Part shown: positions 97 to 13,248 of the stretch, piece after piece
Position numbering within the stretch: position 1 is the stretch's first letter
Layout: the number at the start of each line of letters is the position of its first letter
From: Pseudomonadota bacterium
Lineage (GTDB): Bacteria > Desulfobacterota > Desulfarculia > Adiutricales > JAGVGV01
Length of the DNA stretch: 13,248 nucleotides
Assembly (NCBI GenBank): GCA_018830135.1
Contig: JAHJTB010000007.1
Span: 1 to 13,248, forward strand
Reading direction: 5' to 3'
Position numbers and translations under genes: made by a program
The notes under the pieces: generated by a model
The model's input: only the letters and a program-made list of their open reading frames with translations
What the model was told of the DNA's origin: nothing
The model's database searches: none

Positions 97-2931
<2,835 letters not shown>

Positions 2932-2935
<4 letters not shown>

Positions 2936-3531
2936 TTTCGGTACCTCACGACGATACAGGAGGCGTCATCGTCGCCCTTGCTCAATTGATCCATGATTTT
3001 CGCGGCGATCTGACGGGCTGAGCCTTTCAGGAGGTCTGGGAAAAAGTTCATGTCAAAATGTTCCCTTATGCCGTCGGAAGTGGCGACCAGAATGTCCCCG
3101 GAATTCAGTTCAACCTCATGTTCCACCGGGTTTGGGATGACATATCCGATAATGCCGTCCCGGGAAAGGAACTGGTGAGGTTTGGCGCCGTACAGGCGGG
3201 TCATGATATTCCCTATGCCTGAAAAAAGCATTTTTCCAGTCTCTTTATGCAAACAACCCAGCGCGGCCACGGCGCCCCGGGTGCCGCGCAGATGCTCATG
3301 CAGGCCTTTCATGACCTCGGCCAGACTCTGCCGATAATTTTCAACCAGGTATCCCTCCGCCCGGACGGCCACGGCATGAGCATCCCGTCCGTGCCCGAGC
3401 ACGTCGATCAGGGCCCAAAACAGTTCGTCTGAGGATTCCAGGATCAGGCCCGCGTCGCCGCAGGCGTCCGGCGAGCCTTCCAGGGCCCTTTTAATAAAAT
3501 GGCAGTCCAGGCCGGGCATCATGCTCTCCAC
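2932..3531 (-). CDS. rsbX: RsbX-like PP2C/SpoIIE-family serine phosphatase (stressosome feedback phosphatase homologue)
   Basis: ORF of up to 199 aa. Metal-binding and PP2C-like motifs fall in the same order as in B. subtilis RsbX: CGDAG, DVLGHG, RGAVAA, GIGNI, TSDGI, DDDAS. The start is ambiguous: GTG 3531, or ATG 3522 (forming ATGA with the rsbT-like stop at 3519-3521), or ATG 3519. GGAGAG lies just upstream of the ATGs. Confidence 0.85.
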
Positions 3532-3935
3532 TTGCGGCCGACAATCAGGGTCCCCCGCCCCGGCTCGGATTGAATCTCAAACTCGTCCATGATTCGTTTG
3601 ACACTCGGAAGTCCCAGCCCCAGGCTGTCCCCGCTGCTGAAATGGTCCGTCATGGCCGCTTCGACGTTCTCGATGCCCGGCCCCGAGTCCTGGGCCGCGA
3701 CTTCCAGCCCCACATTCTCGAGGTTGTGTAAAATCCTGAGCGTGACCCGCCCCCCCCGGCCGGCATACCGAACGATATTGGTGGCCAACTCGGATACGGC
3801 CGTGGCAAAAAAGACCTGATCGGCCGTATTGAATCCGGCCTGACCGGCCATACTCCGGGCGGCGCTGACCGCCAGGGCGCAGTCCGATGGTTCTTCCAAA
3901 TCGATGCAGGTCTCATCGACCACACGTGTTGTCAC
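3519..3935 (-). CDS. rsbT: RsbT-like anti-sigma-type serine protein kinase (GHKL ATPase fold)
   Basis: 138-aa ORF with GTG start at 3935 and GGAG 8 nt upstream. It is collinear with B. subtilis RsbT. The N-box SELATNIVRYAG, G1 AQDSGPGI and G2 SLGLGLPSVKRIMDEF are all intact. The size and its position after two STAS genes are canonical. Confidence 0.9.
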   Translation of the reverse strand: MTTRVVDETCIDLEEPSDCALAVSAARSMAGQAGFNTADQVFFATAVSELATNIVRYAGRGGRVTLRILHNLENVGLEVAAQDSGPGIENVEAAMTDHFSSGDSLGLGLPSVKRIMDEFEIQSEPGRGTLIVGRKWRA

Positions 3936-3959: not shown

Positions 3960-4376
3960 TTACTCCGAATCCGACTCTTCAATATCTTGCTCAAGGTCTT
4001 CCTCGAACCGGACGGGGTTGATTAATTCCATCGCATCATTCAAGGTCACGGCCGTGTCGATGCTATCAAGATCGACATCCAGGTCCACCAGGGCGGAGGC
4101 CAAACCTGCCCCAAAACCGGTGAATATGACCTTGGGCCCTAACAGCCTTACCATTTTCGAGATGCCGGCCAAAAGGCCGAAAAGAGCCGCATCGATGATT
4201 TTTACGCTGGAAACATCGATCAGCACACCCTTGACCGGAGCGGTCTCAATTTTCTCCAGCATTTCTTTTTGCAGCAGCCGCAAGGAAGCTTCATCCGGCT
4301 CTGCGTTGAGCGTGACAACGAGGTTCCGATGAACCACGTTCATCCCGGCCCCGGAATTGGAGTAATCTTCAGACAT
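3960..4376 (-). CDS. rsbS: RsbS-like single-domain STAS protein (stressosome scaffold/antagonist), with an acidic C-terminal tail
   Basis: The STAS core NLVVTLNAEPDEASLRLLQKEMLEKIETAPVKGVLIDVSSVKIIDAALFGLLAGISKMVRLLGPKVIFTGFGAGLASALVDLD aligns without gaps to B. subtilis RsbS (...[51 protein letters not shown]). The start is uncertain. ATG 4376 (GGAAGG 11 nt upstream) is chosen here. The ORF is open up to GTG 4436 (no SD), and ATG 4343 would give a 127-aa product closest to RsbS in length. Confidence 0.85.
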   Translation of the reverse strand: MSEDYSNSGAGMNVVHRNLVVTLNAEPDEASLRLLQKEMLEKIETAPVKGVLIDVSSVKIIDAALFGLLAGISKMVRLLGPKVIFTGFGAGLASALVDLDVDLDSIDTAVTLNDAMELINPVRFEEDLEQDIEESDSE

Positions 4377-4443: not shown

Positions 4444-5253
4444 CTATTTTTTCTGCTTCACTTCATAGTTCAGCAAAGCGAACGCGTCGATCAGGGCGTC
4501 TTCAAGGGTGGAATTTGTGGTCACGGTCCCCAGATCGATACCCAGTTGGACCAGGGTCTGGGCCACGGCGGACGAGATGCCGGAAATGATGCAGCGGCAG
4601 CCCATCAGTTTGGTCGCTTTGGTGATCTTTATCAGATGATTGGCCACGGCCGTATCCACGGCCGCGACGCCCTGGATATCCATGATGATGACCTTGGAGG
4701 ACGTTTCCGTTATCTTTTCCAGCATGGCGTTCATCATTTGTTGGGCGCGCAGGGAATCGACAACGCCGACGACCGGGAGCACGATGATCCTGTCCCAAAG
4801 CTTGATGGCCGGTGTGGATATCTCCATAATGGTCCGACTCTGATCCCTCAGCTTCTGCTCGTAGCGAACCCGTTCCGAAATATCGATGACGTACTCCAGC
4901 CCGCCGATAATCTCCCCCGTTTTGCCCATCAGCGGGGCCGCCGTATATTCAATGGGAATTGTTCTGCCGTCAATGTTCAATTCATTACGCCCGGTGTACC
5001 CCTGACCGGTGTCCATGGCCTGCACCATCAAGCATTCCGGTGTCTGACAATGTGCTGAATTCAGAAGCGAGTGACAGGTCCGGCCTTCAATTTTATCCCA
5101 CGTTTTCCCCAGGACTTCACGACCCGCGGCGTTCATGAAAATGATTTCGAAATCGCGGTTCACAGCCATGACCGGTGTTGGAATCTGCTCGAGAACAGAC
5201 AGCGCGATCTCATGGTCAACATGGAACATGTTTTTGCCTTCTTGATCAATCAC
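4444..5253 (-). CDS. rsbR: RsbR-like stressosome sensor: N-terminal PAS domain (Cys/His-rich) plus C-terminal STAS domain
   Basis: 269-aa ORF with GTG start at 5253, preceded by a strong SD AAGGGGGA 6 nt upstream. The C-terminal half (ISTPAIKLWDRIIVLPVVGVVDSLRAQQ...IQGVAAVDTAVANHLIK...CIISGISSAVAQTLVQLGIDL) is collinear with the B. subtilis RsbRA STAS domain. It includes the two phospho-acceptor positions (Ser167 corresponding to T171, Thr201 corresponding to T205). The N-terminal ~125 aa read as a PAS fold (IPTPVMAVNRDFEIIFMNAAGREVLG...IPIEYTAAPL...GEIIGGLEYVIDISER), not the globin-like domain of RsbRA. Confidence 0.9.
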   Translation of the reverse strand: MIDQEGKNMFHVDHEIALSVLEQIPTPVMAVNRDFEIIFMNAAGREVLGKTWDKIEGRTCHSLLNSAHCQTPECLMVQAMDTGQGYTGRNELNIDGRTIPIEYTAAPLMGKTGEIIGGLEYVIDISERVRYEQKLRDQSRTIMEISTPAIKLWDRIIVLPVVGVVDSLRAQQMMNAMLEKITETSSKVIIMDIQGVAAVDTAVANHLIKITKATKLMGCRCIISGISSAVAQTLVQLGIDLGTVTTNSTLEDALIDAFALLNYEVKQKK

Positions 5254-5665: not shown

Positions 5666-7960
5666 TTAATTGCCGCTTTTCAGTTTCTCTTTCAAGGTCT
5701 CCAGGACGGCCTGGGCCTCCTTGAACTTGTACTTGCCGATGAATTTATTCAAATCGCCCGCCTCGTCCCGCAGGCCCTCCGGCCAGCCCGAAGCAGCGAT
5801 CCGGTCCATGACCGGCTGGCACAACTTGGGCTTGCGCTTCAGAATATGGGGTTCCAACTCGTCGAGCAGGGCCAGCAGGGCTTCCGGGTCCGCCGGCCCG
5901 GCGGCCGGCGCTACCTCGGCCGCGGGACCGCCGGCCGGCTCCAGGGCGGCCAATGAGGCCATGACCCGGCCCAGGGCCTCGGTTAGGGAAGGCAAGGCGG
6001 CCCGGGCTCCGGCCTCGTCGCCATGCTTGACGGCCGTTTCCACCTCCGCCGCCGACGCCTGAACCTCCAGGGCGCCGATGTTTCCGGCCACGCCCTTGAC
6101 CGTGTGGGCCAGACGCTGGGCCAGCTCCCGGTCGCCCGCATCCAGGGCCTCGCTAATTTTCACGGTCGACTCCGGGTAGTCCGTGTAAAACTTGAGCAGC
6201 AGTTTGCGGAACAGCGTCCTGTTCCCACCCACCCGCTTCAGGCCGTCCGCGGCATCGATGCCGGGCAGGTCCGGAATATCGGCCTCATCCGCCTTCTCTT
6301 CAACCAGCGCCGGCGGAGTCCTGTCTTCCGGCATCTCCCGTTCGCCGGGCTCGATCCACTTGAGCAACGACTGAAAGAGCTCAGCCATGTCGATAGGCTT
6401 GCTGACGTGGTCGTTCATCCCCGCCTCGATCGCCTCTTCCTTGTCCCGGGTCATGGCGCTGGCGGTCATGGCGATGATCGGCAGGCCGGCGAACCTCGGG
6501 TCTTTCCGGATTTCCTTCGTGGCCTGGTACCCGTCCATGACCGGCATCTGCACGTCCATGAGCACGGCATCGAATTTCCGGCGGTTGACCGCCTCCACCC
6601 CTTCGAGGCCATTGTTGGCGATAGTCACCAGCAGCCCGGCCCCTTCCAGAATCTCCCGGGCCACCTGCTGGTTGATCTCGTTGTCCTCGACCAGCAGGAT
6701 TTGGGCGCCCCGGATCGGACGGGCCATGTCCGCTTCCCGGTCCTTCTTCGGCCTGACCAGCTTTTCGGCATCAACCTTCCCGAAAGCCCGCATGACCGCG
6801 TCCAGCAGGCTGGAGCGGGAAGCCGGCTTGACGAGCACTCCGTCCAGTTCGGTTCCTTGCGCCGCATCCAAGGCCTCGTCCTGAGCGTACGCGGTGACCA
6901 GAATGATTTTGGGTTGTTTCGGCAGACCCGCCAGGCCCCGGATTCGGCGGCTTGTTTCGATGCCGTCCAGTTCCGGCATCTGCCAGTCCGTCAGAACCAG
7001 GTCATAGGAACGATCCGGCGGCGCGTTTTCAAGCAGGGCCAGCCCGTCCGTTCCGGACGGGGCCTGATCCACCTCGAACGAAAAGGACTCGAGCATCTCC
7101 TGCAATATCTCCCGGGCCGTCCGGCTGTCGTCTATCACCAGCACCCGCAGCCGGAGCAGGTCTTCGGACAACGTCGGCTTTTCCATCTCCCGGCCCTCGG
7201 CCACACCCAGCCTGGCCGTAAAGATGAACTCGCTGCCCACGCCGGGCTCGCTTTCCACCCATATTTCCCCGCCCATCATTTCCACCAGGCGCTTGCTGAT
7301 GGTCAGCCCGAGTCCGGTCCCGCCGTACTTGCGGGTCGTCGAGGTATCGGCCTGTGAAAAGGCCTGAAACAGCTTGCCCCGCTGCTCCTCGGTCATGCCG
7401 ATCCCGGAGTCCCGGACGGAAAACCGGATCGAGACATCATCAGCGGACCGTTCCATCATTCTGGCCGTGACCACGATCTCGCCCCGGGCCGTGAATTTGA
7501 CCGCGTTATTGCCCAGGTTGACCAGGACCTGGCTCAGGCGCAACGGATCGCCCACCAGAAAGCGCGGAACCCGGGGGTCGATATGGAACAGCACTTCCAG
7601 GTTCTCTTTTTCCTGGGCCTTGACCGTGATCATGTTGGCCACGTTGTCCAGGGTTTCCGCCAGATCGAAGTCCACCTTTTCCATATCCAGCTTGCCGGCC
7701 TCGATCTTGGAAAAGTCCAGAATGTCGTTGATGATGCCCAGCAGGGACTTGGCGGATACGTCGATCTTTCTCAGATAGTCGTGCTGCTTGGGATCGAGGT
7801 CGGTCTTGAGGGCCAGGTGGGACATGCCGATGATGGCGTTCATGGGCGTCCGGATCTCGTGGCTCATGTTGGCCAGGAACTCGCTCTTGGCCCGGGTGGC
7901 GGATTCCGCCTCCTTCCTGGCCACCTCGAGGTCTTCCATGATGTTGAGCATGGCCCGGCG
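5666..7960. repeat. Copy 2 of the ~2.3-kb diverged direct duplication (transmitter module of HK2)
   Basis: See copy 1. A hand count over HK1 aa 183-439 against HK2 aa 151-407 gives 28 differences in 257 residues (about 89% identity). The last 57 residues of that stretch are identical. Confidence 0.9.
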
Positions 7961-8410
7961 CGCCTGGGCCAGGTCGGCCACCCGGGCTTCCATGGCCTTG
8001 GCGGCCTCCGCCCGCTCGTTGAAGCTTTTCTCCAATTGTTGGGTCATGCTGTTGAAGGCCTCGGAGAACTCCCCCATGAAGTCCACCTGGTGGCTGAAAT
8101 CGCCCTGGGCGATCTGTTGGGTGGTCCAGGTAAGATGTCGCAGACTGCTTTGCAGGTTCTTCATCGAGGCCAGCAGCACGCTGTTCCCCCGGGGCGCCTG
8201 AAAGTCGATGTCGCCCCTGGACAGCGCCTGGAGCAGATCGGCGGTGGCATGGTATTCACCGAGGAACTTGTTGATGTACCCCACCGCCTGCCGTATCTCG
8301 TTGTCGGGAAAATCAGAGGGCAGAACGATGGCCTCCGGCTTTTTACCCTTGACGAGCAGATAAAAAACCTCGCTGATTTTGTCTATGATCTCTTCCTGGA
8401 CCTCGATCAT
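5666..8410 (-). CDS. Hybrid sensor histidine kinase HK2: soluble HAMP-like array, coiled coil, HisKA, HATPase_c, REC, REC, HPt, C-terminal tail (paralogue of HK1)
   Basis: 914-aa ORF with ATG at 8410, 5 nt after the V4R gene stop. The N-terminal 130 aa have no TM segment and contain HAMP-like units ([23 protein letters not shown]; [11 protein letters not shown]...[15 protein letters not shown]; [30 protein letters not shown]). H-box His184 (nt 7859-7861), REC1 Asp475 (6986-6988), REC2 Asp619 (6554-6556), HPt His769 (6104-6106). From aa 151 onward it is collinear with HK1 aa 183-948. Confidence 0.95.
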
Positions 8411-8415
8411 TTGTC

Positions 8416-8943
8416 TTACGCCTTTGGTTTGACTTCAAACCGGCAGATCCGGTCGCCGGTGCACCAGCAGTCAATCTCCTTGACGTCGAATTCCTGGCCG
8501 GTGAATTCCAGGAACAGGCCGTTGATGAATCCCTCGTCATAGGTGCAGATGCTCTCGTCGCTCATAGGCAGGCCCGAGCAGTCCAGGTCCTCGGCCACCG
8601 TCAGGATGAAGTTCATGTTCTGCATGTCGGCCTTTTCCACGCGCAGAATGCCGATGCTCAAGTCGCTGAGAAGCTGCTGAACCTCGACCACGAAATCATT
8701 GAAATCGGTCTTTTTCGTGACCAGGTTCTTGAAGAACTGGCGGCCGGCCGACCGGCCGGCATCGTAATAGACCCGGTCGGCCACCTCCGGGCCGAACTCC
8801 CTGATCAGCACGTCGCGCAGGGTAAACTGCATCAGCCGGTATACTGCTACATTCATGACGCTGCCCAGATTGGGTCTGCCCGCGGCGATGTCGCCCAGCA
8901 TGCTCCACTCGAACTGCAACTCGTCTCTCTCTTCTTTGAACAT
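8416..8943 (-). CDS. Stand-alone V4R-domain protein (4-vinyl reductase / hydrocarbon-binding family, COG1719-like)
   Basis: 175-aa ORF with ATG 8943 and SD GGGGGGA 7 nt upstream, 15 nt after the giant-sensor stop. The C-terminal half, [55 protein letters not shown], matches the V4R pattern as I remember it: C...C.[FY].G...G.....G......E..C...GD..C.F. The call is from recalled family features, not a search. Confidence 0.75.
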
Positions 8944-8958
8944 AACGATTCCCCCCTT

Positions 8959-11900
8959 TTATTGTTCCACGATTTTGTACTTTTGGCCCCGGCCCAGCTC
9001 CACCATGAGGCCGTTTATTTCTACCTTGAGCTGGATCATCTTCTCCTCGCGGCCCAGAGTCAAGCGGTTGAACCGCTCGAGGTCATCCATGTACTGCCTC
9101 ATTTCCTCCTCCACCCGCTTGCGTTCGCTGACATCCCGGAAGCTGACGACCGCACCGACCACGCGCCCGTCCTTGCGTATGGCCGTGCTGGTATACTCCA
9201 CGGGGAAGCATTGCCCGTCTTTGCGCCAGAGGACCTCGTCGTCCACGTGGTGCGTGGCGCCATCGGTGAAGGAAGCGTGCATGGGGCATTGTTCCAGCGG
9301 ATATTCGCTGCCGTCGGCCCGCGAATGGTGGAAGAGGGCATGCACCGCCTGGCCTACGACCTCGCCCTCGGGAAATCCCAGCATCTTCAAGGCGGCGGGG
9401 TTGATGAAGGTCAGGGCGCCCCGGTCGTCCACACCGAATATGCCTTCCCCGGCGGATTCCAGCAGCAGCCGGCTGCGTTCCTCGCTGCTCTTGAGTTCCT
9501 CGGTCCGCTCTTCGACCAACAGTTCCAGGCGTCCCTTGTAACGCTCGATTTCGGCCCGGGCCTGCTCGGCGTCCTCGGCCAGGCTCAATGCGGCTGCACG
9601 CTCGCGCAGGGACTCCTCGGCCCGCCTGGCCATGGCGGCTTCGGCCCGTTGGGCCCGGAGGCGTTCCACGGTGTTGGAGACCACCGTCTGGGCCAGGCTC
9701 AGCAGAAAGCTCAGGATGGCGGGCAGCCGTTCCTCGGAGACGATGGGGGCCTCGGTGACGGCCTCCAGATAGGGCCCGACTTCGAGCCCGACCTCCCTGG
9801 CCTGGCGCCTGAAAAACTCCAGATCGGGCGGCTCGGTGAAAAACTGGCCCACGAAAGCATTGGCCACGTGTTTGCCGCCGATGATGACCGGGGAGGCGCA
9901 GTCGGTCAGCCCGTTCTTGCAACGGTACATGGAAAACGGCTGGCCCTCGTTGAGCTTGAGAGCCAGAACGGTGTCGCTTTCGATGCACCGCTCGCAAGTC
10001 ATGTCATTGGCCCGGTGGAAATCGGTGCAGGCCCGCTGCCAGGGAGACGCGGCCAGCACCTCGCCTTCCATGTCTATGATGGCGGCGGAGATGCCCACCG
10101 TCTGCCAGAAGGCGCTCATCAGGTCGGCGAACTGGGACCCGGTCAGTATCTCGCCCAGTTGGGCGGAATCGATCGCGACGAGTCCTCCGTCCCGCGCCTC
10201 ATCATCCCCGGCATCCGGCTCCGGATCGCCGGCAGGTTCCTCCGTGCGGCCTTTAAAGGGCGGTTCCATGCCGGCCTGGACAGCCAGGGCGTTGATTCGG
10301 CTCTTCAGTTCGATGACGCGCTGTTCGCGTCCCATGGCCAGTCGGTTGAAGCGCTCGATCTCCTCGAGTTTGGCCTGGAGTTCCGTCCGGGCCGCCTCCA
10401 CATCCTGTCTGGCCCGCTCGGCCCGGGCCGCCGCCTCCTCGGCCACCTCCTTCTCCACCATCAGGGCCTCGGCCTGTTTGCGCTGGCTGATGTCGCGGAC
10501 CGTGCCCACCGCAAACCACTCATCGTCCACCTGGAAGGAGGACAGCGTCACCTCTACGGGAAAAATCCTCCCCTGCCGGTCCTGGGCCTCGATCTCGGTG
10601 GTCTTGCCCAAAACCGGACCCTGACCGGTCCGGGCGAATGTCTCCAGCCCCTGGCGCACCTTGTCCCGATAGGGTTCCGGCGCGGCCATGGCGTGGAAGT
10701 CCATGGCCATGGCCTCATCGGCCGTGTACCCGAAAAGGCGCTCGGCTGCCGGGTTGAAGAACATCACCGCACCCCGGCTGTCCAGCATGACCAGGGCGTC
10801 GTCCACCGCCTGGCTCATGGCTCGCGTTTTCTTTTCCGATTCCAGAAGTTGTCCTTCAGCCCGCTTGCGTTCGGCGACCTCCCGGCCGAGCCTCCGGTTC
10901 CACAGGACGATGACGAGCAGAATCAGCACAAAGGCGCCGGCGATGGGGATGGCCCATTTGAGCAAGGTCCGCAGTTCCAGGCCCTGGACGTACTGGACGG
11001 ACACCCAGCGGTTTTTGATCCCGGCCTTTTCGCTCTCGGTCATCGAAGCTAGGCCCTTGTCAAGGATCAAGACCAGTTCCGGCCAGTCTTTGCGGACGCC
11101 CATGCAGAGGTCGTATTTGAATGGGGTGGGCGCGGCGATCTTGAGGTTGGCCAGCCCGTCGGCGTCTATCCCGTAGGTCACCGCCGCGAGATTTCCTATG
11201 ATGGCGTCCAATTCGCCCTCGGAAACGGACCGAAGGAGTTCGGTCATGTCCCGCCGCGGGTCCAACCGGATATCCGGGAAAGAACGCTTGAGGTATTCCT
11301 GGACCGCATATCCTTCTATCACTCCGACTTTTTTCCCCGTCAAATCACCCACCCCGCCGATAAACGGGGCGTCCTTGCGAGTGACGATCACCGCCGGAAA
11401 AGAGGCATATGGCTTGGTGAAAAGGAGATACGCCTCGCGATCCGGAGTGGGGGCCACCGCGGCCAACATGTCCAAATTCTTGTCCTTAAGACCTTGTACG
11501 ACCTGCAGCCAGGCGAGCCCCTCAGCCGAAGCGAGGGTCAGCCCCAAGCGCTTTTCCAGGGCTCTTACAAAGCCCGCGGATATCCCGCTGTATTCTTTTT
11601 TCTTGTTCAAAAACTCAATCGGCGGCCAGTTCGGGTCGATGCCGAGACGGATTTTGGGATGGTCTTTCAGCCAACGGCGCTCTTCCGCGGCCAACACCAA
11701 TTTCTGCGATTCCTTTTCTGGTCCCATCACGGAAGGCAACCATCGGCGGCGAAGCTCCCGCAACTCGTCTTTGGTGATGGCATCCAGTCCTTTTTGAAGG
11801 ATGTCTCGCAGGATGATGTTGTCCTTCAGCACCCCCATGTGGAGTTCGGTCTCCTGCTGCGTCTTGAGCCAGACCTCGCCGGAAATTTTAATATCCGGAA

Positions 11901-13248
11901 TGACGGCTGTGTCTAAAATATGCGAGATTACCCCCAAACTACCGATGAAGGCATCGACGCGCCCGAGCGAGACCGCCTTTAATCCTGCCAGGACGTTTTC
12001 CACCGGTACCTGCTTGATTTTAGGATACCGATCACGCATGACATCGGCAGTAGCAAACCCGGACACAATGGCAACCTTCATGCCCTCCAGGTCCGCCGCT
12101 TTTTCGATATTGCCGCGTTCCTTGCCTACCACAACAACGGAAGGGTTGGCGGCGTAAACCGTCGTAAACGCCATGAACTCCTGGCGCTCCGGGGTCAGGT
12201 AAACCGCCGGTAACACGTCTATTTCGCCAGCCTTGAACTTGGCGGCCAACTCGGCCCAGGCGTAACCGTTGACAAACCGCAGGCTTATCCCGATTTTTTC
12301 AGCCGCTGCGCGGATCAGGTCGATGGTCAGACCTCTGGGTTCGCCGTTTACAACAAAATCGAACGGAGGCCAATCCATTTCATTGGCCACTGTTACCTCC
12401 GGATGGGCGTGAAGCCAGACCTTTTCCTCAGGCTTCAGCTTCAGACCAAACCCGGGTCGTTCCTTCAATTCGTATATTTCCTTGGCCACCTGGGCCAGGT
12501 CCAGGGTGTATTCCGTACGCGTGGGGTTGCATTTTTTGGAATAGTGCCGGAAGTCCACCTCGTTCGGGTCCAGGGCCAGAAAATACGTGAACGTTGATAG
12601 GTTATCCTTGATGATGGCCGGCATCCTGGTGGTGAAGCTGAGGCCTTCCGAAGCGAAATCAACGCCCTTCAAGTAGTCGTACAACATCAGCACGGCCCAG
12701 GCCCCTTCGATGAAATGGCCTCCCACGCTCGCCTGAAGACGGCCCTCGCCGATGGCCTCGAGTGCTCGCGGGTCCCAGTCGACTCCGCCAATAAACATCG
12801 GATGGTCGATGCCCATTGCATTCACGGCGTCGGCAACGGCCAGGGCCATGTTGTCATTCGCGCACCAGACCACGTTGATGGCAGGATTCTTGGCATAGTA
12901 TTGCTTGAACACGCTAACGGCCGCAGCCGGGTCCCAGTTGCCCGGGGCCTCGCTGAAAGATTCGACCCGAAGAGCGTACTTCAAATAATCTTCCAACCCC
13001 CTGCGCCGCTGGATGGAAGCCTCCTGGTCGGGCTGTCCCTCGATACCCAGAACGTGGCACCCAGGCGCCCCGGCCTTCTCGGCCAGGCTCAGGAGCTGCT
13101 GTATGAGCGTGGTTCCGGCCGCACGGTCGTCGGGCGTCATCTTGCCCACCCAATAACGGTACTTGGTCCGAGGCAGGAAATCAGCGCCCTCGATCTCGGT
13201 GTTGATCATGAAAGCAGGGGTGTGGTACTTTTCCGCGATCTGCAGGAC
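8959..13248 (-). CDS. Giant multi-domain membrane sensor with no recognisable output domain (5' end outside the window)
   Basis: The 1,416-aa ORF in the track starts at ATG 13209, but the frame stays open to 13248 (VLQIAEKYHTPAF upstream of that Met). The first domain is also incomplete, so the true start lies beyond the window. Numbering from Met at 13209: aa 1-225 is a type-I periplasmic-binding (sugar-SBP-like) domain (VVWCANDNMALAVADAVNAMG...GGVDWDP). aa ~263-490 and ~508-738 are two type-II SBP_bac_3-like domains (EMDWPPFDF..., IDPNWPPIEF...). The TM helix is aa 749-770 (nt 10900-10965). PAS is ~790-908, followed by a coiled coil and an acidic linker at 985-1008. The PocR-like domain is ~1015-1175 (ACTDFHRANDMTCERCIESD...YRCKNGLTDCASPV). 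A coiled coil with an ERT-type signalling helix follows, then PAS ~1245-1362 and a terminal helix to stop TAA 8959-8961. No HisKA, GGDEF, EAL, HD, MCP or DNA-binding motif was seen. Confidence 0.9.
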   Translation of the reverse strand, partial: VLQIAEKYHTPAFMINTEIEGADFLPRTKYRYWVGKMTPDDRAAGTTLIQQLLSLAEKAGAPGCHVLGIEGQPDQEASIQRRRGLEDYLKYALRVESFSEAPGNWDPAAAVSVFKQYYAKNPAINVVWCANDNMALAVADAVNAMGIDHPMFIGGVDWDPRALEAIGEGRLQASVGGHFIEGAWAVLMLYDYLKGVDFASEGLSFTTRMPAIIKDNLSTFTYFLALDPNEVDFRHYSKKCNPTRTEYTLDLAQVAKEIYELKERPGFGLKLKPEEKVWLHAHPEVTVANEMDWPPFDFVVNGEPRGLTIDLIRAAAEKIGISLRFVNGYAWAELAAKFKAGEIDVLPAVYLTPERQEFMAFTTVYAANPSVVVVGKERGNIEKAADLEGMKVAIVSGFATADVMRDRYPKIKQVPVENVLAGLKAVSLGRVDAFIGSLGVISHILDTAVIPDIKISGEVWLKTQQETELHMGVLKDNIILRDILQKGLDAITKDELRELRRRWLPSVMGPEKESQKLVLAAEERRWLKDHPKIRLGIDPNWPPIEFLNKKKEYSGISAGFVRALEKRLGLTLASAEGLAWLQVVQGLKDKNLDMLAAVAPTPDREAYLLFTKPYASFPAVIVTRKDAPFIGGVGDLTGKKVGVIEGYAVQEYLKRSFPDIRLDPRRDMTELLRSVSEGELDAIIGNLAAVTYGIDADGLANLKIAAPTPFKYDLCMGVRKDWPELVLILDKGLASMTESEKAGIKNRWVSVQYVQGLELRTLLKWAIPIAGAFVLILLVIVLWNRRLGREVAERKRAEGQLLESEKKTRAMSQAVDDALVMLDSRGAVMFFNPAAERLFGYTADEAMAMDFHAMAAPEPYRDKVRQGLETFARTGQGPVLGKTTEIEAQDRQGRIFPVEVTLSSFQVDDEWFAVGTVRDISQRKQAEALMVEKEVAEEAAARAERARQDVEAARTELQAKLEEIERFNRLAMGREQRVIELKSRINALAVQAGMEPPFKGRTEEPAGDPEPDAGDDEARDGGLVAIDSAQLGEILTGSQFADLMSAFWQTVGISAAIIDMEGEVLAASPWQRACTDFHRANDMTCERCIESDTVLALKLNEGQPFSMYRCKNGLTDCASPVIIGGKHVANAFVGQFFTEPPDLEFFRRQAREVGLEVGPYLEAVTEAPIVSEERLPAILSFLLSLAQTVVSNTVERLRAQRAEAAMARRAEESLRERAAALSLAEDAEQARAEIERYKGRLELLVEERTEELKSSEERSRLLLESAGEGIFGVDDRGALTFINPAALKMLGFPEGEVVGQAVHALFHHSRADGSEYPLEQCPMHASFTDGATHHVDDEVLWRKDGQCFPVEYTSTAIRKDGRVVGAVVSFRDVSERKRVEEEMRQYMDDLERFNRLTLGREEKMIQLKVEINGLMVELGRGQKYKIVEQ

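Follow-up and report, generated by a model that had tools for sequence, protein, structure and literature searches.

The window analyzed here, a stretch of 13,248 nucleotides that makes up one whole contig (C373) of a 6.8-Mb, 562-contig metagenome-assembled genome, encodes a stressosome in which the RsbS protein carries an alanine at the conserved phospho-serine position. Phosphorylation of RsbS is, in the canonical model, the event that frees the kinase RsbT, and in this locus the acceptor is missing from RsbS and the genes for the kinase and the phosphatase are both still present beside it.

The minus strand carries every gene of interest in the window. A large sensor with a periplasmic domain and PAS (8959-13209), a V4R protein (8416-8943) and a hybrid kinase, HK2 (5666-8410), are followed after a gap of 412 nt by the rsbR-like gene (4444-5253), which codes for a PAS-STAS protein of 269 amino acids (Pfam PAS_4 and STAS). 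The rsbS-like gene (3960-4376) codes for a single STAS domain (Pfam STAS) with an acidic C-terminal tail (138 amino acids), the rsbT-like gene (3519-3935) for a serine kinase of 138 amino acids (Pfam HATPase_c_2), and the rsbX-like gene (2932-3531) for a single-domain PP2C phosphatase of 199 amino acids that is matched by Pfam SpoIIE over positions 3-191 of 192. The output is a hybrid histidine kinase, HK1 (89-2935), which overlaps the end of the RsbX gene by 4 nt and has an N-terminal RsbT-like domain in addition to Pfam HisKA, HATPase_c, two Response_reg and Hpt domains. The HK1N HMM matches HK1 residues 1-133 and the corresponding domain of the outputs in related loci. A Pfam search of the window and of a longer contig found none of rsbU, rsbV, rsbW or sigB in the locus, with sigma and anti-sigma genes likewise absent, and the arrangement of RsbR, RsbS, RsbT and single-domain RsbX followed by a signaling output is that of a minimal rsbRSTX module with a non-sigma-B output. 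The RsbS gene lies between rsbR and rsbT with rsbX nearby, and about 75 related loci share this placement, as does G048, a genome of the same family but of a different genus. The locus is a complete rsbR-rsbS-rsbT-rsbX module holding a genuine RsbS orthologue.

The longer contig L006 carries the same locus and extends beyond window base 1 (L006:13153-18269). In this extension HK1 is followed by an RR-HD-GYP protein, likely a c-di-GMP phosphodiesterase, and then by a hybrid kinase, a response regulator of a single domain and one more hybrid kinase. From these genes placed after HK1, the stressosome probably feeds a multi-step phosphorelay ending in c-di-GMP turnover.

The start of RsbS is taken as ATG 4376, which is the start picked by gene callers on two other assemblies and gives an N-terminal length equal to that of Bacillus subtilis RsbS in the alignment. 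The minus-strand codons GAT (4193-4191), GCG (4190-4188) and GCT (4187-4185) encode Asp, Ala63 and a second Ala within the motif stretch VKIIDAALFGL (4173-4205, minus strand), which runs from the β3-α2 loop into the beginning of helix α2. In the numbering of the long ORF from GTG 4436 this alanine is residue 83, and two serines preceding it are residues 76 and 77. The best matches of the protein in a phmmer search of all PDB sequences are RsbS from B. subtilis (PDB code 6jhk, E = 2e-13), then Listeria (PDB code 6qcm) and Moorella (PDB code 2vy9), with the Listeria S56A protein (PDB code 9o4r) also among the matches. The phmmer alignments are gap-free across the motif and place Ala63 opposite B. 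subtilis Ser59, Listeria Ser56 and Moorella Ser58. An identity as SpoIIAA/RsbV was rejected, the protein having no acceptor, the NCBIfam models spore_II_AA and ant_ant_sig lying far below cut-off and the locus having no sigma or anti-sigma gene.

The phospho-serine of RsbS and SpoIIAA is the first position of helix α2. In the AlphaFold2 model of the window RsbS, calculated from a 60-sequence alignment (mean pLDDT 86.6, core above 94), a strand (residues 50-54) leads through a loop (residues 55-62) into a helix (residues 63-78), so that helix α2 begins with Ala63. The top Foldseek match of the model is B. subtilis RsbS with a target-normalized TM-score of 0.86 and an rmsd of about 2 Å. The codon, the gap-free alignments and the position in helix α2 bear out the sequence-only reading that alanine occupies the phospho-serine position, and the structural comparison places this alanine, not the two serines of the long ORF, at the acceptor site. 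The protein has a single STAS domain, a length within the range of about 115-140 amino acids and RsbS proteins as its closest relatives; the family feature that it lacks is a phosphorylatable serine or threonine at the N terminus of helix α2. The C terminus of the protein, residues ~118-138 (window 3963-4025), is an acidic and disordered tail with a pLDDT of about 50. B. subtilis RsbS has no such tail, and similar or longer acidic tails occur in many homologues of the RsbS subfamily, Ser-type and acceptor-less alike.

The classic switch could be preserved if RsbS were phosphorylated on a shifted residue; the β3-α2 loop offers Ser56 and Ser57 as candidates, and neighboring helices offer Ser73 and Ser94. 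The Bacillus phosphorylation site is "not conserved" in Vibrio brasiliensis RsbS (Jia et al. 2016, PMC4976288), and this protein is nevertheless phosphorylated in vitro, weakly and in an RsbR-dependent manner, at a site that the authors did not identify (PMC4976288); some other acceptor-less RsbS proteins have a serine one or two residues further on (DAS, DLS and Vibrio DGES). The window RsbS, however, has no serine or threonine at positions +1 to +9 after Ala63 (AALFGLLAGI), the next serine being residue 73, and in the AlphaFold2 model Ser56 and Ser57 lie where the loop leaves β3 and do not occupy the place of the acceptor. Ser-type homologues nearly always have Ser56 as well, so that it is no compensating novelty, and Ser57 is replaced by lysine in the G048 orthologue. 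A shifted acceptor is thus considered unlikely.

The window is a short contig of a metagenome-assembled genome in 562 contigs, which is the one point in favor of a sequencing or assembly error at the alanine codon. The identical 138-residue RsbS is, however, also encoded on the Logan contig L007 of run SRR6514730 and on the ENA assembly ERZ27247117, which differs from the window at 3 of 13,248 nt, and the G048 orthologue also has Ala-Ala at this position, written GCC GCC in place of the GCG GCT of the window. The probability of an error is regarded as negligible. L007 was rejected as an independent strain and is counted only as an independent assembly, as all 10 SNPs cluster at the contig end. 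These 10 differences from the window (2141-2222) fall in the last ~80 nt, inside a stretch of HK1 about 87% identical to HK2, and probably represent assembly cross-talk between the near-identical HK1 and HK2 transmitter modules and not strain variation.

The G048 genome (99% complete) contains the orthologous locus in the order sensor, PAS-STAS RsbR, RsbS, RsbT, RsbX and HK1-type kinase. Its RsbS is only 53-59% identical to the window RsbS, yet the motif VKIIDAALFG is unchanged. The acceptor codon in the nearest Ser-type relative, locus L008, is TCG, one transversion from GCG. The acceptor-less module is the only one with a stressosome-type RsbT in G048, and the Ala-type module in that genome is therefore not a redundant copy. 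The identities between the window and G048 are 77% for RsbR, 63% for RsbT, 61% for RsbX, 56% for the first 252 residues of HK1 and 53% for RsbS. Relaxed selection on RsbS was considered and rejected: RsbS is the least conserved protein of the module in all three comparisons made, including the sole Ser-type one (L008), and there is therefore no sign of extra relaxation after the loss of the serine.

The partners of RsbS retain the residues required for a phosphorylation cycle, as the sequence-only reading had claimed for kinase, phosphatase and RsbR alike. The RsbT nucleotide-binding boxes N (ELATNIVRYA), G1 (DSGPGI) and G2 (GLGLGLP) are intact and are also kept in Ser-type loci and in five other acceptor-less loci. 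RsbX has intact CGDA, DxxGHG, SDG and DDD motifs, with the metal motifs also intact in five other acceptor-less loci, and its best PDB match, aligned end to end, is 3zt9 (E = 3e-17), an entry that we regard as MtX because it fits the Moorella set of PDB entries. RsbR keeps both acceptors, Ser167 (TCC, 4755-4753) and Thr201 (ACG, 4653-4651), the columns being read from an HMM alignment in which they are equivalent to Thr171 and Thr205 of B. subtilis RsbRA.

A similar combination is present in the minimal stressosome of Vibrio vulnificus and V. brasiliensis (PDB code 7o0i; PMC9237108, PMC4976288), which shares with the window the gene order rsbR-rsbS-rsbT-rsbX followed by a two-component-type output, the absence of a sigma-B cascade, an RsbS without the Bacillus acceptor and an RsbR with its acceptors kept. 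V. vulnificus RsbS in the cryo-EM stressosome (PDB code 7o0i) has glycine at the acceptor position in the motif TLDGES. The two systems differ in the RsbR sensor, a PAS domain in the window and a heme globin in Vibrio, in their outputs, and in the surroundings of the lost acceptor, as the window has Ala-Ala without a nearby serine or threonine whereas Vibrio has glycine and then serine at +2. The Moorella thermoacetica set MtR/MtS/MtT/MtX (PDB codes 2vy9, 3ztb, and 3zt9) is likewise a sigma-B-free rsbRSTX system, and the window RsbS aligns to MtS, but MtS retains the acceptor Ser58 where the window has Ala63.

B. subtilis S59A and Listeria S56A are engineered counterparts that carry the identical substitution at the equivalent site of the structure. 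These are laboratory mutants in sigma-B pathways, whereas the change in the window occurs naturally, is conserved between genera and belongs to a module whose output is a hybrid histidine kinase. The statement in the sequence-only reading that S59A locks the B. subtilis system off is too strong, as the mutation lowers signaling without abolishing it: the mild-stress response is blocked, the response to strong ethanol stays at about 60% of the wild-type level (Gaidenko & Price 2014, PMC3944199), and signaling persists in the T171A S59A double mutant (PMC3944199). Listeria RsbS S56A forms a normal 2:1 RsbR:RsbS core together with RsbT, but signaling is blocked in the engineered mutant (PMC12154155). 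This difference between the two species is summarized in PMC11821858, and the phosphorylation-independent route is not universal.

The distribution of the alanine was examined in 50 genomes from the order and in a phylum-wide sample of 401 genomes. Stressosome modules occur in about 30 genomes and in two architectures. In type A, to which the window belongs, R-S-T is followed by a single-domain RsbX and then by an output with an RsbT-like domain at its head; type B has R-S-T, an RsbT-like::PP2C fusion and an RsbT-like::kinase. Every RsbS in this sample has serine or threonine at the acceptor position except those of the window and G048. Among the loci with serine or threonine are L008 and L013-L017 of type A, whose output is of the same kind as in the window. 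Judged from these sequences, the alanine is fixed only in a small clade, here two genera of one family. The fixation in the lineage that the sequence-only reading had asked about holds for this clade but does not extend across loci with HK1-type outputs, and the link to such outputs that it had implied is not upheld, as most loci with a pseudo-RsbT-headed output have serine or threonine in RsbS. A tie between the alanine and HK1-type output was also rejected on the occurrence of acceptor-less RsbS with guanylate-cyclase-type and PP2C-type outputs.

The window genome contains a second stressosome on contig C186 (loci L002, L004, and L005; L005:2-3273), of type B, with two RsbR paralogues, an RsbS with serine (TLDSFF) and RsbT. 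An RsbT-like domain opens the gene after RsbT at this locus (a PP2C fusion in relatives), and G048 has no such second module. Three type-B loci of the phylum sample (L030, L040, and L041) have alanine at the second RsbR acceptor (VDADVA or VDAEVA), and their RsbS keeps serine or threonine.

The loss of the RsbS acceptor recurs well beyond this clade. A word-based homologue search with the window RsbS gave 3 matches, and an exhaustive HMMER search found 1,667 hits among 1.84 billion cluster representatives. In the alignment of 151 proteins (150 hits and P0003) the acceptor column contains S 99, T 14, A 13, R 9, G 5, L 4, D 3, V 2, I 1 and P 1, so that a hydroxyl residue is missing from about a quarter of these RsbS-type proteins. 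The genomic context of four acceptor-less proteins shows a complete R-S-T-X module in each case: a Desulfobacterales MAG with alanine, a PAS-RsbR and a hybrid-kinase output; a JGI metagenome contig with alanine, a protoglobin-RsbR and a PP2C-HATPase output; a Logan contig with alanine, a protoglobin-RsbR and a nucleotide-cyclase output; and an alphaproteobacterial MAG with proline and the same layout of protoglobin-RsbR and nucleotide-cyclase output as the Logan contig. The locus L045:7161-16369 of the Desulfobacterales MAG GCA_015231595.1 has an Ala-type RsbS with a PAS-RsbR and a hybrid-kinase output. A pair of V4R protein and hybrid kinase lies downstream of the stressosome genes in L045 and upstream of them in the window, and the pair and the stressosome module therefore travel together with the order differing.

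A second sample was drawn by a scan anchored on RsbT and is therefore independent of the acceptor residue of RsbS. One genome was used per GTDB species, and among the best 80 of 241 confirmed loci, 75 have a readable RsbS, with the acceptor being S in 57, T in 8, A in 4, L in 2, P in 2, V in 1 and R in 1. Within these loci drawn from the best 80 of 241, the acceptor-less RsbS accounts for 10 of 75 (13%) and comes from Thermodesulfobacteriota, Bacillota, Spirochaetota and Pseudomonadota; RsbX is retained in all ten loci, as is a serine or threonine at each of the two RsbR sites. At the second of these sites all 75 of the 75 loci have serine or threonine, against the 10 in which the RsbS site is lost. 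The singularity that the sequence-only reading had implied is contradicted by these ten loci from the best 80 of 241 and by the glycine of V. vulnificus RsbS. Because the acceptor is missing in both, a serine or threonine at this position is treated here as the mark of a subclass and not of the RsbS family. A literature search, not covering every journal, found no published survey of natural RsbS acceptor loss.

Events were counted on a tree of RsbT and RsbX from 81 loci, a 60-row RsbS tree being set aside for its few columns and weak support. This tree requires at least 10 independent changes between the Ser/Thr and the non-Ser/Thr state of RsbS. The window and G048 form a well supported pair (SH-aLRT 96), and opposite states are seen in the close sister pairs L116 (Leu) and L128 (Ser), L090 (Arg) and L085 (Ser), and L045 (Ala) and L082 (Thr).

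These results bear on the reading that the module is locked off or decaying, with its genes persisting by inertia and the canonical C186 stressosome doing the work. The serine in the RsbS of that second module and the signal-dead phenotype of the engineered Listeria S56A mutant (PMC12154155) speak in its favor. All five genes in the window are, however, intact with their catalytic motifs preserved, and the Ala-Ala pair and the surrounding 10 residues are kept by different codons across two genera in which RsbS is 53-59% identical. G048 maintains the same module without a second one, and the same loss with RsbT and RsbX retained has recurred at least 10 times, as seen in the state changes on the RsbT and RsbX tree. 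An inactive module is very improbable, and the alanine at the acceptor position is real and under selection.

The explanation we favor, and hold to be reasonably probable, is that RsbS acts as a permanently unphosphorylated scaffold and that RsbT and RsbX cycle phosphate only on RsbR, at Ser167 and Thr201. Alanine took the place of the acceptor serine in an ancestor shared by at least two genera; one T-to-G change would have sufficed if the codon before it was TCG, the acceptor codon of L008. RsbS would still build the STAS core with RsbR and still offer a docking surface to RsbT, but could no longer be switched by phosphorylation; the docking surface around the acceptor position is highly conserved. 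RsbT and RsbX would be retained because phosphate is still cycled on the two RsbR residues, and the output would be governed by the conformation and phosphorylation of RsbR alone, through release of RsbT toward, or its exchange with, the RsbT-like N-terminal domain of HK1. Loss of the RsbS switch may then be a tuning step that gives a higher threshold or altered response dynamics.

This explanation is supported by the gap-free alignment of Ala63, its position at the start of helix α2, its conservation in G048, the intact partners and the recurrence of the loss. Published support comes from the signaling of B. subtilis S59A under strong stress, the assembly of Listeria S56A and the glycine of V. 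vulnificus RsbS. The weak in vitro labeling of V. brasiliensis RsbS, which lacks the Bacillus site, counts against it, as the window RsbS may be phosphorylated at another residue, and so does the fact that the phosphorylation-independent route is not universal. The sequence-only reading had proposed that phospho-control works through RsbR alone or that release of RsbT is governed differently, and with the RsbR sites, RsbT and RsbX intact this is still the most economical interpretation.

The acceptor-less stressosome is not a new kind of system. It is already exemplified in Vibrio and is common, at about 13% of the modules sampled from the best 80 of 241 loci, and the main value of the analysis is this survey result, which backs RsbR as the obligatory phospho-substrate. 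A natural and conserved acceptor-less RsbS whose module keeps the kinase, the reset phosphatase and a phosphorylatable RsbR, together with the recurrent losses elsewhere, argues that the RsbS switch is optional and that RsbR is the obligatory phospho-substrate in many non-Bacillus stressosomes. A broader generalization, which is possible but rather doubtful, is that RsbS phosphorylation is generally dispensable in sigma-B-free rsbRSTX systems and that RsbR phosphorylation and conformation alone gate either the release of RsbT or the docking of the pseudo-RsbT-headed output. If this were true, the repeated replacement of the RsbS acceptor by A, L, P, V, R or G would have served in evolution to tune the threshold or the dynamics of the response.

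Six rsbRSTX loci (L097, L111, L117, L124, L125, and L126) belonging to MAGs of Rokuibacteriota, Acidobacteriota and Gammaproteobacteria show acceptor loss the other way round: the first RsbR acceptor, equivalent to B. subtilis Thr171, is proline, the second is serine and RsbS has its serine.
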